DNA from: a virus
Length of the DNA stretch: 64,000 nucleotides
Direction: 5' to 3' (one strand)
Virus record (IMG/VR): IMGVR_UViG_3300027969_000050
Coordinates: 1-64,000 of that record
In this document: positions 3,462 through 56,658 of the stretch, in pieces
How positions within the stretch are numbered: position 1 is the first letter of the stretch
How the letters are laid out: every line of letters begins with the position of its first letter
Translations under genes and position numbers: made by a program
Notes under the pieces: generated by a model
The model's input: the letters and a program-made list of their open reading frames with translations, nothing else
What the model was told of the DNA's origin: nothing
Database searches by the model: none

Positions 3462-6265
3462 AACGATTTCACCATACCGTAAGTAAACTTCTCCATCATC
3501 CCATCATCATTTGTATCTTTTGCGGATGGAGACGACAACTGCGCAAAAGTTTCAAATCCACCAGCATAATCAAACTGATGCTGTACTGAATCGATATAAC
3601 AAACAAGATCGTGATCCTTAAAGGCAACTCGACCGCCCGGATAAAGCTCGGGCATGAACGTGAATTGGAACTGAGTAATAAATTGCAGGGACCATTGCTG
3701 CATGAAGCGCTGAAATGCGGAGAATGCCTCAAAGTATTTAGAACGGATCAATGGCTCTTCGTGATAGTCAGGCCTTACCCCGTAACGATTCAAGAAGTTA
3801 GCGGCGTCCTTGAAAAGAGGAAGTTTGCCCTTGCCTCCCTGCTGGGATAGAAGCCAGTTTGTTTCAAATGCGTTGAAGATCGTAACGATTCCGGACGTCA
3901 TCAACCTATCGTTAAAGTCAATCTTCATGTCGTACTGAGTGTCTCCAACAACGTAAACATGAGTTTTTAGGTTTTCATCAGATAGAATCATGTCGCCCTC
4001 AATAAGCTCAACGTCGTCAATTTCCCAGTACGGCGGTCTATTAGGATTAAACGTCCCAAAATGATCGGGGAAGAAGGCGTAGAATCGACCGTCTGGAAGA
4101 CTCATGTAGGTTCTCATGCTGGCGGAGCAAAGCTGTTCTACGAAATCAATCAGCGGCTTGTCATTCATGTACGATTTTTGGCCAGAATAAGCCAAGGATT
4201 CAAGCGTTTCTGCCATTGTTGGCAGCTCTATGACGGTGCCAAAGGCTGAAGCCGTAGCAATTCCCTGAGCGGCCTCTTTGCTAATTCCGCCGCCAGAAAT
4301 GCCGCTTGCCGAGGCCGGGTCGGTACCCCCAGCCTGTGTATCCGCCCCTGCAAGCCAAGGAGCCGCGTCCTGTGCTACTCCTCCGGGCCGATACTCAAAA
4401 TGCAAATGCGGTCCTGATGAACCACCGGTATTGTTTGATTTGGCAATTACGTCACCTTTTTTAACTTTATCGCCAGCTTTGACATTCCATGACTGAAGGT
4501 GTCCGTATCTTGTAAAGACGTTATTCGCATGCTTTAACTCAATCCATTTACCATATCCGGTGCCGCCATCGTCTTGAACAATGTTTGCCGTACCATCCAA
4601 TACAGCAAAAATATCAGTACCGTTGGGACAAGGAAAGTCAAGGCCTTCGTGGAGGTGTCCGACCCTTTGCGTGCCAAAACCGGAGCCTGCTTTGATACCA
4701 GTTGGTACTGGCCACAATGGTTTGTTGCTGTTGGAAGGGGCCTTTGGACTTTGCGTTGATGGCGTCGGTCCTTTCCCAGACTGGTTTGGCTGTGGGGGAA
4801 CCGCGCCGGGAAGAGAAGGGGCGATAGGCCTTGCCGCAGCGCTAACGGTCCGGCTACTTCTTCTTGCAACCGGGATTGAAGAGTCGATGACTGTAGTTGC
4901 GGCATCAACAATATCCCGACCAATCATGTCATTAATTGAAACTGACGCAACTTTGGCAGAGCGACTGTTGCCATCTGGGGTACGACCATTTCCAGACTGA
5001 CCGCCTCCGGGTTGCGCTACGTCCTGAGTTTTGTTTTTGTTTTTTGCCGCTCCTCTTTTCCAAGCGGCAAGCGTGTTTCTAGCTTCAATAAGCCCGCCCG
5101 CTCCATTGTCGTACCTGTCTGGATACGCTGACCCCTCAACAGTTTGAGCGATTACACCCGGCGACATTCCCGGATTTTTTTTGGCAAGCTCAATAGCAGA
5201 TCCTTTACCAGTCCATCCATGCTTTCCGTTGTCCCCGTTTTTAAATTTAGCCGGGGCTGGATCGCCGCCCATAAATACCCGGACGTTGAAACCAATGTTC
5301 ATCAGGTCGCTCTTTGGGTTGTATCTCTCTAGGCCCTGCAAGATACCGTAGGATCCGTATCCATCTTCAGATGGTGTGGCTATGTTAATCCATTCGCTTT
5401 CCTGCGTTCCAGCTTCGATTAATGCAAGCACGGCATTGTCTGGAGGGTTTTCGTAAAGATCGTAGGCATATCCAAGACCCGCTTCAAGGTTTTTAATTTG
5501 CTCGGCGCTTGCCTTGGCGCCCTTAATTTTAATGTTTTCACCAGCCAACGTTCCGTTTCCACTTCCGCCCGGGCTATTTGAACTTGCCCCTGCGGCTGTC
5601 TCTCCAATTGCGGTCCTTAAGAATTCTTTGAGCGCCTCCTTGGTCTCTTCATTTTCCTTTTGGAAGCTCGAGAATACCTTGGTTACGGTGTCAACAATAC
5701 CCGGAGGCAAGGCCTCGATAAAAATGTCCTCTTGACGCCATTTACCAACAGCTTCAAGGACCCCATAAAGAATGTTGCTGAACCCTCCATCGTTAAGGTT
5801 TTTATTTTTCTGCTTTAGAGTCGAATCGGTGGCTTCGTCAAGATTAATAGCCGTACCGTCGGTCATTTGCTGCCAACCAAACTTAGATATAAAGGTCTTA
5901 GAGAATGGAAGCGCGGGATCCCAGTATGTGTACTTCAGCCTCTTCATCGTGCAGGAGGCCTCTAGGGTAATTGTTCCGGGAAACAACTGTAGGTATGGCG
6001 TCGTGTCCAAGAACCCAGTAAAGACGCGAACAGGATAGTTGATATTGCGAGCCATGTAGATTGTAATTGGGTCCATCGGATGAAATGCTGGGGCGCCCGG
6101 AGTAGTAAATTTAAAATCAGGGTTACGCAAGACCAGAGACGCCGTGCTGACGCCATTCGTGATCCTGTTTACGTTTCCTGAAACTATGTATGGACTTAGG
6201 TCGATTGCTTGACTGTCTGTCTTTACATAGGCCCAGACCTTAGGTCTATATACTAATCTTTTCAT
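3458..6265 (-). CDS. Baseplate hub (copy A) with inserted lysozyme-like domain and M23 peptidase
   Basis: Hub-like N and C halves; AGTQES...GSYGILQG...[13 protein letters not shown] lysozyme-like block; M23 motifs HEGLDF, YGHL, GPHLHFE. Confidence 0.85.
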
Positions 6266-7797
6266 CCTGATCCCCCAGTAGAAGGCCTTACCATTCCCAA
6301 TGGATAGCCGACTTTACTATTAACATCAGCGGATGGGGCAGATAGCTGGGCGGTAGTCGTAAACCCGTTTTCGTAATCAAACTCGTGCTTTACCGAATCG
6401 ACATAACAGATCAGGCCTCGATCCTTGAATGAAACTCGGCCACCGGGATACATCTCTGGCATGAAAGTAAATTCGCAGTTTGTTAGAAACTGCCTCGCCC
6501 AAAGCAGCATAAACCTCTGAAAGGCAACAAACATTTCAAAAAACGGAGCGTGGACGTAAGGAGCGTCCTCGTAGTAGGGCCGAACGCCGTAACGCTCCAA
6601 GAACTTGGTCTCGTCAGAAAACACCTTAACTTTGTTTTGGGCGACGTCAACATTGCCAAGCCAGTTCAAATTGAAAGCGTCAAAGATTGACACAACGCCG
6701 TTAGAGTTCAGGCGGTTTACAAACTGAGGGCCAACCGGAGACGGCGCCGATCCTGCAAGCATCGTGTCACCAACAACGTAAACGTGTGTGGCCAAGTTCT
6801 CGTCAGATAGGTACATGGTCATATCGATTACCTCAACATCATCGATTTCCCAATATGGCGCCCTGTGATTAAAGCTTCCAAAATAGTCTGGGAAAAACGC
6901 ATAAAAGCGACCGTCCGGGAGGCTTTGGAAGTGATGCATAGACGCTGAGCAGAGCTGCTCAATAAAATCAATTAAGGGCTTGTCGTTTAGATAAGACTTT
7001 TGACCTTGGAGCATCATCGCCTCTAAGCGATCCTCACGGGTTGGTCCCTCCAATACAACTCCGAATGCTGCCGCCGTGCCTACAGTCTGCGCGCCAGCGG
7101 CGTCAATACCATTTGTGACGCCCCCTCCGCCACCACCTCCCCCGCCTGACCCTCCAGCAACAACCTGAATATTGGAACCCGTAATATCGTTGTAGATTTG
7201 CGCGATTGTCGTTGTGTTTCCAGAGGCGTATCCGCTACTTGCCCATCCGGAACTTACGATTGCTTGGATTTGACTTTGTGGAGACCCTCCAGCGGTCTTG
7301 ATAATCTGAAGAATTCCAGACGAAGGACCAAATTTCTTGCCCCTTAAAAAGTCATTGGTGGCCTGAGCCGCCTTCTCCCCGGTACCCCATACGCTGTCGT
7401 ATGTTATCCCTCCTCGGCCCGAGTCGAACCAGCCAACATTTAACCAGTTATGGTTGCTTGAACTCTCTCGTCCCTGAGCAGCGCTGCTGTTCCCGTATCC
7501 CTCTTCTGCAATTACCCAAGCGGCAATAACATACTTGTCCATACCAGATAGGTTGGCAAGCGTGTCAACAAACGTTTTTTGACCAGCGGTTAAATTAAAA
7601 CTTCTGCCGCTTCCACTGCCGCCACCTGACGATGATCCCGAAGAAGAACCGGATGATGGCGACCGGCGACTGGTAGAGGCAACTGGGGCCTTTGGAGAAC
7701 TAGGAGTTCTCGCTGCCGCTCGACCAAGAAGAATTTTGGCTTGCGGAACAGGGTTCTCGCCAATAAATTCTGGATATATGTCAGCGGCTGAAATCAT
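6262..7797 (-). CDS. Baseplate hub copy B, C-terminal half, preceded by glucosaminidase/lysozyme-like domain
   Basis: C half [36 protein letters not shown] nearly identical to copy A; N domain AAWVIAEE..HNWLNVG..SGWASSGY; ATG at 7797 overlaps upstream TGA (ATGA). Confidence 0.8.
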   Translation of the reverse strand: MISAADIYPEFIGENPVPQAKILLGRAAARTPSSPKAPVASTSRRSPSSGSSSGSSSGGGSGSGRSFNLTAGQKTFVDTLANLSGMDKYVIAAWVIAEEGYGNSSAAQGRESSSNHNWLNVGWFDSGRGGITYDSVWGTGEKAAQATNDFLRGKKFGPSSGILQIIKTAGGSPQSQIQAIVSSGWASSGYASGNTTTIAQIYNDITGSNIQVVAGGSGGGGGGGGGVTNGIDAAGAQTVGTAAAFGVVLEGPTREDRLEAMMLQGQKSYLNDKPLIDFIEQLCSASMHHFQSLPDGRFYAFFPDYFGSFNHRAPYWEIDDVEVIDMTMYLSDENLATHVYVVGDTMLAGSAPSPVGPQFVNRLNSNGVVSIFDAFNLNWLGNVDVAQNKVKVFSDETKFLERYGVRPYYEDAPYVHAPFFEMFVAFQRFMLLWARQFLTNCEFTFMPEMYPGGRVSFKDRGLICYVDSVKHEFDYENGFTTTAQLSAPSADVNSKVGYPLGMVRPSTGGSG

Positions 7798-8975
7798 GTT
7801 CCGGGCCAATGCCTTGCCGTAAATCCACTTGTGGGGTGATCTTTAGGATTAAAGCCCGCTCCGCCAAACCCCTTGCCCCACTCTCCAGTTCCAAAATGAT
7901 GCCCAGAATGACCGGGAAGATTAAATACAAGAAAGACATGTGAAGAGTTGGCGTACATTGTTAGATATCTACCTTTACCAGCCTTGCCCCAGCTTTTTGC
8001 CATGTCGTAGCTGGCCGGAACCCCTTGGCCCTCTCTGAATCCCATCCCCCCAGCGCAAAGCACGGCGGCAACAGATCCTGAGCAGTCATATCCACCTCCA
8101 CTTGGACTTCCGCACTTAGAGTGGCCTCCTCCCCAAACGTATGGAAGACGCTTGTTGGTGATCGAAACAGCCTCGGCGTAGGCTTGCTCCACCGCCGCTG
8201 GACCGGTTCCAGTTCCATCAAAAGCAAAGCTTCCAGATGCTGCGTCCGCCGCCGCTCCTCCAGACACCTCCTGAGGCGGATCCCCAATAGCACTTGCCAG
8301 AAACGCTTTAAAGGCCTCTTGGGTCGCTGTTCGGTCGTCCTTAAGGTCGGTCCATAGCTTATCGATATCGTCGGTCAGCGTAGAAGGAAGCGGTTCGACC
8401 AATAGATCTTTAGGGTCCCAATGACCAATATTTTCCATCGAGGCAGAAATCAGCGCCGACAATCCAGAGTCATTAAGCCCAACTTGACCAATCGTGTGAA
8501 TCTCCCCGTTGACATTTTTGGCTTGTATGGATCTGTTTTCGGCGTCGATGTTACGCATAGTTCCGGTAGCCACATCCTGCTGCCATCCATACCTAGCAAG
8601 AAAATATTGGGTGAACGGCAATGCAGGATCCCAGTAGGTGTGCTTAAGACGTTTAAGTGTGCAGGACGCTGTCAGGGTTACGCTTCCGGGAAATAGTTGC
8701 AGGTAGGGAGTGTCGTCCAAGAACCCAGTAAAAACACGGACCGGGTAATTAATATTTCGGGCCATGAAGATTGTTATCGGATCCATCGGGTGAAAAGTCG
8801 GACCCTCAGTGAATTTGAAGTCAGGGTTTCTTATGGTTATCTTTGCGGTGCTGACATCATCGACAACACGCTCCACGTTTCCTTTTACGATGTATGGGCT
8901 AATGTCAATTGGAATTCCTCCCTCCATGGCCTTGACGTATGCCCAAATTTTAGGTCGGTAGACTAGTCTTTTCAT
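7794..8975 (-). CDS. Baseplate hub copy B, N-terminal half fused to NlpC/P60 peptidase
   Basis: [15 protein letters not shown]...[27 protein letters not shown] matches copy A; PYVWGGGH..YDCSG..HVFL catalytic Cys/His. Confidence 0.85.
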   Translation of the reverse strand: MKRLVYRPKIWAYVKAMEGGIPIDISPYIVKGNVERVVDDVSTAKITIRNPDFKFTEGPTFHPMDPITIFMARNINYPVRVFTGFLDDTPYLQLFPGSVTLTASCTLKRLKHTYWDPALPFTQYFLARYGWQQDVATGTMRNIDAENRSIQAKNVNGEIHTIGQVGLNDSGLSALISASMENIGHWDPKDLLVEPLPSTLTDDIDKLWTDLKDDRTATQEAFKAFLASAIGDPPQEVSGGAAADAASGSFAFDGTGTGPAAVEQAYAEAVSITNKRLPYVWGGGHSKCGSPSGGGYDCSGSVAAVLCAGGMGFREGQGVPASYDMAKSWGKAGKGRYLTMYANSSHVFLVFNLPGHSGHHFGTGEWGKGFGGAGFNPKDHPTSGFTARHWPGT

Positions 8976-44715: not shown

Positions 44716-44757
44716 TTATGCTCTCTTTACGGCTGTGTAAATAGTCCTAACGGACTA
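44713..44757 (-). promoter_or_regulatory. Operator-coupled promoter
   Basis: TAGTCC-GTTA-GGACTA, 1 nt, TTACAC, 16 nt, TAAGTT. Confidence 0.55.
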
Positions 44758-44769
44758 CTTTAGGGACGG

Positions 44770-45120
44770 TTAGGCGCCATCCGTTTGGATAGGTGCCATT
44801 GGCCTGCCGTACTGGTAGCGATCCCAATCAAACTGAGGACTATTGTCGTATTCCTCGTTAGGGTGTCCCGGCCCAAGAGCCTGAACTACCTGTCGTTTAA
44901 CGAAAGGATCGGTTAGGGGCTTACCCTTGACGTCTGTTACTCGCCAGCCGCGCTTAATCTTTGCGGCAAAGCCCGTCATCGCGTTTGGATCCCCAGACTC
45001 ATTAGCCAAGCTTTCGAGAGTCGGATTGTCGAGCGGGTGGTCTTCTAAAGCGTGAGCGAAAGTGACCGCTGCTGTTTGAGGAGAAAAGCACCACATGTAG
45101 AACGTCGGTTCATAGGTCAT
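44770..45120 (-). CDS. Hypothetical protein with late-type start motif
   Basis: TAA-TCGT-TG-ATG start. Confidence 0.6.
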   Translation of the reverse strand: MTYEPTFYMWCFSPQTAAVTFAHALEDHPLDNPTLESLANESGDPNAMTGFAAKIKRGWRVTDVKGKPLTDPFVKRQVVQALGPGHPNEEYDNSPQFDWDRYQYGRPMAPIQTDGA

Positions 45121-46197: not shown

Positions 46198-46243
46198 AAA
46201 CTACTGAATGGCCAATCGATTAGCAACCCGTCTAAACGGATGG
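46198..46243 (-). promoter_or_regulatory. Operator-coupled leaderless promoter
   Basis: CCATCC-GTTT-AGACGG, 1 nt, TTGCTA, 17 nt, TAGTTT, 6 nt, ATG. Confidence 0.65.
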
Positions 46244-46325
46244 TTTTACTTTCAAACGGACTGGTCAATCTGGGTTGCATGTCGCCATCACATTGTTATA
46301 CCGGTATCCAAACGGATAAAGGATG

Positions 46326-48647: not shown

Positions 48648-48656
48648 AGTATAGCA
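48648..48656 (-). promoter_or_regulatory. Extended -10 leaderless promoter (TG-C-TATACT)
   Basis: 6 nt before ATG 48641. Confidence 0.7.
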
Positions 48657-49434: not shown

Positions 49435-50049
49435 TCAATCGATTAGCCCTTGACGAAGAGCAGCGCTAACCGCCGCCCCCTTGTTATGGACGCCGAGTTT
49501 GGAATAAATATTGCGAAGGTGGAATTTGATTGTGGGTTCAGCGATGTAAATCTCCCCCGATATTTTCTTTGCGGTAAGCCCGTCCGCGACCAAGATCAAG
49601 ATCTCGCGTTCACGCGGGGTCAGCTTGCACGGCCTCCCTGCGTCTCTGAGAGTTCCTACGAGCTGCGAGTGAATCTCCCCTAGAGCGGTCTCACCACGAG
49701 CCACTTGCTTGACCACATCAAAAATGCTTTTTGGGGACCGAGTTGCAAACCCCATCAATCCATTCGCCACAGCCTCAACGAAATCTATCGTGTGGCAGCT
49801 ACAGCAGATTAAGACCGGGGCCGCTTCTGATTCGGCCTCGTGCAGCTTGCGAATTATCTGCGGGCCAGAAAGTCCCGGGAGGCAGGCTCCCAAAATCGCA
49901 ACGGTTGGAGCTTCAATAATAAGCTCTTGAAGGGCCTTGGCTCCGTCCGACGCGGAGCCTAAAACACGGCCCTCAAACAACTGTGACAGGCCGATGATTG
50001 AAATTGGATCGTCAGCTATGTAAACGCTAAACCCCTGCTCTAAGCCCAC
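49435..50049 (-). CDS. NarL/LuxR-family regulator with degenerate receiver domain
   Basis: LTPREREILILVADGLTAKKIS..TIKFHLRNIYSKLGV; receiver VAILGACLPGLSG lacks the phospho-Asp. Confidence 0.9.
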   Translation of the reverse strand: MGLEQGFSVYIADDPISIIGLSQLFEGRVLGSASDGAKALQELIIEAPTVAILGACLPGLSGPQIIRKLHEAESEAAPVLICCSCHTIDFVEAVANGLMGFATRSPKSIFDVVKQVARGETALGEIHSQLVGTLRDAGRPCKLTPREREILILVADGLTAKKISGEIYIAEPTIKFHLRNIYSKLGVHNKGAAVSAALRQGLID

Positions 50050-50078
50050 TTTTTCTCCAATGATGGTGTGTGGGCGGA

Positions 50079-50107
50079 ACTATACAGACGGATGGGGTCT
50101 AGGTCAA
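50079..50107 (-). promoter_or_regulatory. SigA-type promoter of regulator, overlapped by operator copy
   Basis: TTGACC-17-TATAGT; operator 50080-50095. Confidence 0.75.
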
Positions 50108-55652: not shown

Positions 55653-55695
55653 GAATTACTCCTTGTGTGGTTTGTTACAAGGTATTCTATCACAA

Positions 55696-55923
55696 CTATA
55701 GTCCGGGCTTCTGCAATACCCCCTGCAAGAGTCCTGTGGCTTGGTTTAGCAGGTTTACGGCGTTGTTTACGTCCGCATCGGGGTTATTAGCTAGAGCTTG
55801 AGTCATCTGCTGAATGGACAGCAATTGCGTGACGAGGGGCTGAAGGTTGGCGTTTTGCGCGCTTACGCGCCCCAACCCGTGACGAATCGACCGCTGCTCG
55901 TCTCTATCAAAGCTTTTAGGCAT
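55696..55923 (-). CDS. Small helical protein with late-type start motif
   Basis: TAA-AGGC-TG-ATG. Confidence 0.6.
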   Translation of the reverse strand: MPKSFDRDEQRSIRHGLGRVSAQNANLQPLVTQLLSIQQMTQALANNPDADVNNAVNLLNQATGLLQGVLQKPGL

Positions 55924-55949
55924 CAGCCTTTACGCGGTTGTATTTGGAT

Positions 55950-56023
55950 AAAAGAAGGGCCGGGTTCCCGAGAGGTTCCCGACCCTTCCCCACACAACCA
56001 TCATGGCTGGCATCACACCAGCT
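55950..56023 (-). ncRNA. Putative ~74-nt small regulatory RNA
   Basis: TG-C-TATGCT promoter (56029-56037), 5' hairpin, GU-rich linker, 11-bp terminator stem plus TTTT; no ORF. Confidence 0.65.
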
Positions 56024-56064
56024 TGTAAAGCATAGCAGACTCCTTATGTGCTATACTATTGGCT

Positions 56065-56658
56065 ATGCCCAACTGGTGTTTAAACAAATTAGAAATTGAC
56101 GGACGACCAGAGGTGCTTTCCAGATTCTACGAGGAAAACCTCTCAGAAGAGGGAAGCTCGCTGTCATTCAGTAGATCCGTTCCGCTCATGGACCCGCTTA
56201 AGTTTGAAAGCACTTTGATTCCCTTGGCCGTAATTGTTTGGGGAACCAAATGGGACGCCTGTGAGGTAACGGCCTTTGCTGATGAGGCTTTGACCGACCC
56301 AATTGATATTGCTCGGCGCATCGGAGAAGGGGCAAAGTTCTATTACAAGTTTGACACCGCTTGGTCTCCGCCAGTCGAGTGGCTGGAGCAGATCGCCCCC
56401 AAGTATCCGGAGATCTCTTTTCGGCTGTCCTTTGTGGAGCCGGGAATGGATTTTATGGGAGAAGACGTCCATGAGAACGGGGAGCGCAAGTCTAGTTCTA
56501 GCGGCCCAATGGACTACAAGTTTGCTTCTGAGCGAGGGTTGCTATCATGGCCAGACTGTTACGGATGCGGTGATCCGCACACCGAAGAGTTTGTCAACGA
56601 AGAGCTTTGTGAGAAGTGTGCAGAGCAAGACCTAATGATGAGAGGAAAACCATCGTGA
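56065..56658 (+). CDS. YubB/DUF1281-like ferredoxin-fold protein
   Basis: MPNWC.N, WGTKWDA, FDTAWSPP, EPGMDF.G; TG-C-TATACT promoter 56049-56057. Confidence 0.85.
   Translation: MPNWCLNKLEIDGRPEVLSRFYEENLSEEGSSLSFSRSVPLMDPLKFESTLIPLAVIVWGTKWDACEVTAFADEALTDPIDIARRIGEGAKFYYKFDTAWSPPVEWLEQIAPKYPEISFRLSFVEPGMDFMGEDVHENGERKSSSSGPMDYKFASERGLLSWPDCYGCGDPHTEEFVNEELCEKCAEQDLMMRGKPS

Follow-up and report, generated by a model that had tools for sequence, protein, structure and literature searches.

The enterobacterial RNA GcvB is described in PMC9299463, citing Sharma et al. (2007 Genes Dev 21:2804), as using a single-stranded G/U-rich seed, R1, to pair with C/A-rich elements in or just upstream of the RBS and so to block translation. 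In phages, the c4 RNA of P1/P7 and the sar RNA of P22 repress antirepressor synthesis (PMC12197685), and VpdS (vibriophage VP882), PreS (lambda) and DicF (Qin prophage) are trans-acting small RNAs (sRNAs) (PMC12197685; bioRxiv 10.1101/2024.10.31.621285). Phage sRNAs with defined targets are few, almost all of them coming from cultured enterobacterial or Vibrio systems. Terminated-leader RNAs can also act in trans, e.g. the riboswitch-derived SreA/SreB of Listeria and lambda 6S RNA from PR'-tR'.

The RNA considered here is encoded in a 141-nt spacer separating two divergent genes, within the first 64 kb (the window) of a 140,266-bp IMG/VR virus record of 87% estimated completeness. It had been predicted as an unannotated ~74-nt unit, running from a promoter to a terminator on the minus strand (55950-56037); every feature so proposed was found in place, and the layout is kept in relatives. 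The RNA would work like GcvB or the P1 c4 RNA and belongs to no Rfam family. As in GcvB, a G/U-rich seed lies between hairpins, faces a C/A-rich leader and is followed by an intrinsic terminator, the pairing of the phage RNA being a computed one. By contrast, GcvB is ~200 nt long, host-chromosomal, divergent from gcvA and Hfq-dependent, whereas the phage RNA is ~70 nt long and divergent from an Api92/DUF1281_C gene; GcvB targets a regulon of host transporters, whereas the one clearly conserved target of the phage RNA is a phage regulator. The likeness to GcvB drawn in the original prediction stands as a functional analogy (a GU seed on a CA leader) and does not extend to Rfam, where there was no match at the gathering threshold in the 64-kb window, none at E<=10 in 55850-56150, and none to the GcvB (RF00022) or C4 family models.

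The c4 RNA shares with the phage RNA a length of ~70-77 nt, a (for the phage RNA, probable) operon-leader origin, and pairing around the RBS of a phage-regulator mRNA; in both, the pairing sequences diverge together between related phages (cf. P1/P7 heteroimmunity). However, c4 finds its target within the operon that encodes it, and sar is antisense in the strict sense, whereas the present target is a separate unit 6 kb away with its own TTGACC-17-TATAGT promoter; c4 is released by processing, whereas the phage RNA is predicted to be ended by a terminator. VpdS, PreS and DicF are, like the phage RNA, phage-borne, seed-pairing sRNAs of 50-90 nt with terminator hairpins, and tune phage development; they are known from experiments in cultured hosts that have Hfq, and their targets are mostly host mRNAs, whereas the phage RNA comes from sequence alone, belongs to uncultivated ~140-kb phages and has a phage target. 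SreA/SreB and lambda 6S resemble it in being short RNAs made from a promoter-proximal terminator before a read-through-dependent ORF, but the phage RNA has neither a predicted ligand-binding/antiterminator fold nor an evident Q-type antitermination context.

In the wiring proposed here, the sRNA has as its target the message for an orphan LuxR/response-regulator-like protein, which probably steers phage gene expression. This is a prediction from sequence backed by seed-target co-variation in several lineages of large uncultivated phages, and such co-variation is seldom so clear for a phage RNA known in this way; comparative TIR ranking can thus call regulatory RNA-mRNA pairs in viral dark matter.

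Anatomy and conservation of the proposed small RNA

The small RNA has an extended -10 promoter, TGCTATGCT (56029-56037, minus strand), and a TGCTAnnnT box is kept at this place in all seven related lineages. The window's box, originally described as TG-C-TATGCT, is a member of the phage's TGCTAYNNT promoter class. The phage genome has fewer sites of this class than expected (16 vs ~33), and they are mostly intergenic, preceding either an ATG 6-7 nt further on (leaderless genes, including Api92) or a CA-rich leader with GGAG. From the 7-nt spacing at the leaderless genes of this class, we infer that the transcript starts at ~56021-56022, the base of a 5' hairpin, GCUGG-UGUGAUG-CCAGC (56006-56022, minus strand), identified by folding. 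The hairpin is followed by a GU-rich linker, the proposed seed, C-AUGAUGGUUGUGUGGG (55989-56005, minus strand; AUGAUGGUUGUGUGGG itself 56004-55989), which is unpaired in the MFE fold, and then by an intrinsic terminator, GAAGGGUCGGG...CCCGGCCCUUC plus UUUU (55950-55988, minus strand), with a U-tract of only four U. The predicted length of the RNA is about 70-74 nt.

Folding of the 88-nt stretch bore out the proposed structure (z = -3.0). The terminator would work on the minus strand only, as had been claimed, since its stem contains a U-G pair and the plus strand has no U-tract downstream. It probably closes no preceding gene: within ~400 nt upstream of the spacer, the minus strand has just two ORFs (56127-56321 and 56164-56472), both of which run across the Api92 gene of the plus strand and are regarded as spurious. 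The interval has no conserved ORF, and relatives have no gene call there; a 6-aa ORF (MLYKLV) behind AAGGAG was considered and rejected, its ATG lying inside the -10 box and the ORF being missing from relatives. The locus has therefore the make-up of the sRNA class, i.e. its own promoter and an intrinsic terminator bounding a non-coding unit of 50-300 nt.

Relatives were found as syntenic metagenomic contigs, by protein search with the Api92-like neighbour and the LuxR protein, the DNA examined being that of loci L002-L016, to which the P0123 contig (88% LuxR identity) does not belong. The same layout, on the same strand, is present in eight sequence versions from seven lineages (the window, L002, L009, L005, L011, L014, L007 and L008). 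In each, a TGCTAnnnT box is followed by a small hairpin, 11-20 nt of GU-rich sequence, a terminator and, ~30 nt further on, the ATG of a homologue of the adjacent ORF1. Flanking proteins are 43-60% identical over the lineages with conserved layout, with ~43% in the farthest. The RNA's own fold comprises the hairpin, an open linker and the terminator in 7/8 versions. The arms of the 5' hairpin have changed among relatives (CGUUGG/CCAGCG, CGUUG/CAACG, GGCG/CGCC), with double-sided changes at two pairs, and the linker is GU-rich in all lineages, its sequence and length being variable. The terminator (consensus GAAGGGYCGGG..CCCGGCCCUUC-UUUU in the eight versions) keeps 11/11 pairs in 8/8 sequences, with one compensatory G-C to A-U change; its U-G pair is found in the window group. 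The terminator stem, GAAGGGCCGGG/CCCGGCCCUUC, is nearly invariant (55950-55988; L005 7881-7914, L014 2580-2613) at 43% neighbour-protein identity, a sequence conservation that exceeds the needs of a terminator.

A covariance-model alignment of the eight versions has 91.9% of its cells paired and double-sided changes at three pairs, with a covariation score above those of 500/500 shuffles; the paired fraction falls to 25-58% in slid controls. This alignment is model-fitted, and the window sequence in it begins at 56017, the 5' arm thus being clipped and the counts for helix 1 conservative; MAFFT misplaced the 5' hairpin of the window. The covariance model built from the eight versions, which score 59-82 bits, detects one copy alone in the 140 kb and none in the L016 locus, which stops short of the expected sRNA position. 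Scans with the terminator pattern returned nothing but unrelated terminators from IMG/VR, and unrelated terminators alone among the matches listed for JGI metagenomes. The RNA provides a new family, whose covariance model can serve to annotate phages of this kind.

Instead of standing alone as a gene, the RNA probably doubles as the terminated leader of ORF1 (75 aa, MPKSFDRD...; 55696-55923, minus strand), which starts ~30 nt past the terminator. The interval from terminator to ORF1 holds no promoter-like sequence in any lineage, and the spacing and the GTAAAnGnTGATGCC context around the ORF1 start are the same in all lineages; ORF1, plus ORF2 in most relatives, thus probably depends on read-through. 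As in an attenuator, a terminator lies in the leader of an ORF without a promoter of its own. MFE folding of the eight versions predicted no antiterminator in any lineage, with no upstream segment complementary to the 5' arm of the terminator, and Rfam gave no cis-regulatory match in the 64-kb window or in 55850-56150; control through a protein is conceivable.

Regarding the ORF1 start itself, GTAAAnGnTGATGCC (55924-55949 and homologues) is without a Shine-Dalgarno (SD) sequence, ~30 nt after the U-tract, and the first codons (MP[KR]xFDRD) are conserved at the nucleotide level too. The ORF1 homologue in L009 (2438-3079) has grown to 213 aa, and in the same locus (3646-4671) a 341-aa gene lies behind a second copy of the 'cgtaaagg-ATGcctaaaagcttt' context, pointing to a duplicated start module of ORF1.

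Complementarity between the linker and the LuxR-type leader

The proposed target is the leader of a LuxR/GerE-type regulator gene (49435-50049, minus strand) with a GTG start and the SD sequence GGAG at 50055-50058. The protein matches Pfam GerE (2.5e-17), Response_reg being below cut-off (a weak receiver domain), and its orthologues in syntenic loci are 52-88% identical, with an HTH domain that is 61-88% identical. A promoter motif (TTGACC, 17 nt, TATAGT; 50079-50107, minus strand) places the likely transcript start such that the 5'UTR would be ~25-30 nt long. The motif, as TTGAC(C/G), ~17 nt and TATAGT/TATGAT/TATTAT, is kept in L002, L005, L009, L011 and L014; in L016, a more distant relative, a TATAGT -10 box is retained and no TTGAC -35 box is seen. 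In all relatives the 5'UTR is short and CA-rich up to the SD, with counterparts of the target site lying upstream of the SD or partly overlapping it.

The site in the window, CCCACACACCAUCAU (50060-50074, minus strand), lies on the same strand as the sRNA and 6 kb from it, 1 nt before GGAG and 10 nt before GTG. As originally proposed, it pairs with the linker over 15 bp with one bulged U, and the relation is kept across the lineages holding both partners. The ranking of targets came out in favour of this site: of 70,120 windows covering the two strands of the 140 kb, no other non-self one gives so strong a duplex (-27.8 kcal/mol; mean -10.1, sd 3.1; about 5.7 sd below the mean); the runner-up in the genome is close (-25.4).

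The match was also better than shuffled controls. Against UTRs shuffled by dinucleotide, ddG from cofold, in which the folding of the RNA itself is allowed for, gave a p of about 0.003 for the window, with 0.007 for L002, 0.003 for L005, 0.027 for L011, 0.010 for L014 and a value that is not significant, 0.23, for L009; mononucleotide shuffles agree. Duplexes of the seed with the TIRs (-28 to +6) of the called genes in the relatives' loci placed the LuxR TIR at rank 1/20 in L002, 1/19 in L005, 1/29 in L009, 2/21 in L011 and 1/32 in L014. The product of these ranks is ~3e-7 if they are independent, a figure that shared ancestry makes too optimistic, the lineages being related so that combined probabilities overstate independence. 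A cofold ranking over 35 nt upstream was dropped because it let -10 sequence that is not transcribed (GUGUAU) pair with the CA tract. In sliding scans of whole loci, the LuxR leader came 1st in L014, 2nd in L005, 4th in L002 and L011, and lower in L009, the sites outscoring it being mostly within coding regions.

Seed and leader have changed together. In the window, CAUGAUGG stands opposite CCAUCAUu, and in L005 CGUGAUGG stands opposite CCAUCACG, where G-C has replaced an A-U pair and one pair has been gained. AUGAUGG in the RNA goes with CCAUCAU in the leader: the window, L002 and L005 have both blocks, and L009, L011 and L014 have neither. Judged by LuxR identity, L005 is more distant from the window than any of these last three. 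The L014 duplex, perfect over 14 bp, has another sequence, CGUGGUGUGUGGUG/CACCACACACCACG. In L002 a CA has been lost from the leader with the RNA unchanged, and the duplex is weakened from -19.3 to -13.5. The L011 duplex leans on G-U pairs, with five Watson-Crick pairs in a row, or nine with G-U included, which is more in keeping with pairing between RNAs than with a word common to two DNA sites.

In a 5x5 matrix of seeds by UTRs, each cognate pair beats its row and column expectation (the centred diagonal terms are all negative), and the cognate assignment is the second best of 120 permutations. Non-cognate seed-leader pairs are also fairly stable, since CA-rich leaders are common in the phage and GU and CA tracts are complementary by composition. 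Taken with the open linker, an accessible seed and a complementarity to the target TIR kept through evolution are what computation finds for this RNA, as for sRNAs that act by pairing, and the joint change of seed and leader across lineages probably reflects a real RNA-on-RNA control switch.

The original prediction also pointed to an 8-nt match next to the 58-aa ORF downstream of ORF1. CCACACAA (55663-55670, minus strand) does abut the GGAG of that ORF; it is, however, weak and not conserved. It occurs only in the window, L002 and L009 and is missing from L005, L007, L011 and L014, where the orthologous leaders are not CA-rich, and this leader was rejected as a conserved target.

Proposed mode of action and its alternatives

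We consider it probable, at roughly 0.6, that a leader-derived, trans-acting sRNA pairs with the LuxR leader and represses the regulator. Host RNA polymerase would transcribe the ~70-nt RNA from the extended -10 promoter, and transcription would stop at the strong intrinsic terminator ~30 nt before ORF1, the product being at once a discrete RNA and the terminated leader of ORF1. Folded into a 5' hairpin, a single-stranded GU-rich linker and a terminator hairpin, the RNA would pair in vivo, through the linker and in trans, with the CA-rich 5'UTR of the phage's LuxR-type mRNA 6 kb away. The duplex would span from near the mRNA 5' end to the nucleotide before the Shine-Dalgarno sequence, so that, in the classical manner, 30S binding would be blocked and synthesis of the regulator repressed; the mRNA may also be destabilised.

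The same pairing could instead be activating, if by covering the 5' end of the LuxR mRNA it protected the message from decay by RNase J / RNase E. 5'-end protection by sRNAs is established, e.g. for RoxS-yflS in Bacillus subtilis, and the present duplex begins a few nt from the inferred mRNA 5' end and, in several lineages (the window and L014), halts just before the SD. The duplex, however, comes to within 1 nt of the SD or reaches into it (in L005, CACG-GAG shares a G), well within the stretch that a 30S subunit needs, and a CA-rich leader, being unstructured, has no inhibitory fold for the pairing to open; activation seems unlikely. Scarcely more probable than one in eight, in our estimation, is a function confined to cis, in which the terminator attenuates ORF1(-ORF2), the GU tract binds a protein or affects termination, and the LuxR complementarity is functionless. 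The fixed ~30-nt distance to an ORF1 without its own promoter in any lineage would fit such a function, as would a terminator stem conserved in sequence far past the needs of pairing, and in L002 and L005 the TIR of ORF1 is the second-best seed match. It would, however, leave unexplained why the LuxR TIR is best or second-best in six loci and why seed and leader change together, and no alternative antiterminator fold is predicted in any lineage.

The shared sequence might also be a DNA motif bound by a protein, perhaps by LuxR itself, promoter-proximal at the regulator gene and inverted in the sRNA locus. Two near-identical inverted DNA copies would co-vary too, and a site just downstream of +1 is a plausible position for an autoregulatory roadblock. 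Yet the tract has no dyad or direct-repeat symmetry, its length and register vary (8 to 15 nt) while the HTH stays 61-88% identical, the two copies in the window differ by an indel, and the G-U pairs of L011 would be mismatches in DNA. Further, the orientation is complementary on the transcribed strand every time, the tract in the RNA always falls in the single-stranded gap between two hairpins, and the phage's palindromic candidate operator is missing from the sRNA locus; a DNA motif is accordingly improbable. Least credible of all is an ordinary terminator with chance complementarity and no dedicated function. One post hoc 15-nt match in a 64-kb window is not compelling alone, and an exact-word search allowing <=3 mismatches gave at least one match in 32/100 shuffles; but the spacer is divergent, probably no minus-strand gene that would need a terminator ends upstream, and both layout and target relation are kept over lineages at 43-60% protein identity. 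That recent recombination of one block has carried the two partners along together is argued against by their 6-kb spacing and differing sequences.

A broader role than repression of the regulator is conceivable but doubtful: since many phage mRNAs have CA-rich leaders directly upstream of GGAG, the GU seed might dampen many of them, and possibly mRNAs of the host, as a general 'anti-leader' timer, with LuxR the node of highest affinity. The host in such a scheme may lack Hfq and be of actinobacterial type, as leaderless genes and extended -10 promoters hint. Were it true, the co-divergence of seed and leader would amount to an RNA specificity code among co-infecting relatives, as in P1/P7 heteroimmunity. 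CA-rich 5'UTRs directly before GGAG recur in the genome (plus strand, 67162, 73266 and 76747) and in the window (plus strand, 57536; minus strand, 55676 and 21008); these could be translational enhancers and further weak targets.

Genomic surroundings

No relative of the virus was found among GenBank phages by blastn or tblastn (DNA and two proteins), no match to two neighbouring proteins or to an exact 29-mer in IMG/VR, and no prophage copy in 185k species genomes. As clues to the host, tRNAs were looked for and none found, and an Rpf-like protein was searched and had no genomic relative. Several phage genes look leaderless, a hint at the translation style of the host; TGCTATAMT boxes with an ATG 6-7 nt on occur in the window on the plus strand at 56049-56067 and on the minus strand at 48656, and elsewhere in the genome on the minus strand at 65471 and 88705.

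Opposite the sRNA, the most likely start of the Api92/DUF1281_C gene is the ATG at 56065 (plus strand). This apparently leaderless gene has a divergent, back-to-back promoter, TGCTATACT (56049-56057, plus strand), kept in relatives. The two divergent -10 boxes (56029-56057) form an imperfect inverted repeat, AGTATAGCA-N11-TGCTATGCT, and promoters placed back to back ~20 bp apart could compete for polymerase or form an operator. A palindrome, ATCCAAACGGAT, and close variants of it cluster at 44744-44790, 46230-46317, 49413 and 50082; with <=2 mismatches the window holds 26 sites, two of them exact, vs 15.8 expected. It was considered as a LuxR operator at the sRNA promoter and rejected, there being no site near that promoter.

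On the minus-strand side, ORF1 is followed by the 58-aa ORF and then by tail-collar fibre and ParB-like genes. In L011 a CCA-adding enzyme/HD gene (6415-8502, plus strand) stands in place of the latter two, and L014 carries a second LuxR-type paralogue (7126-7698, minus strand), from which the region between the sRNA and LuxR appears to be a zone of variable cargo.
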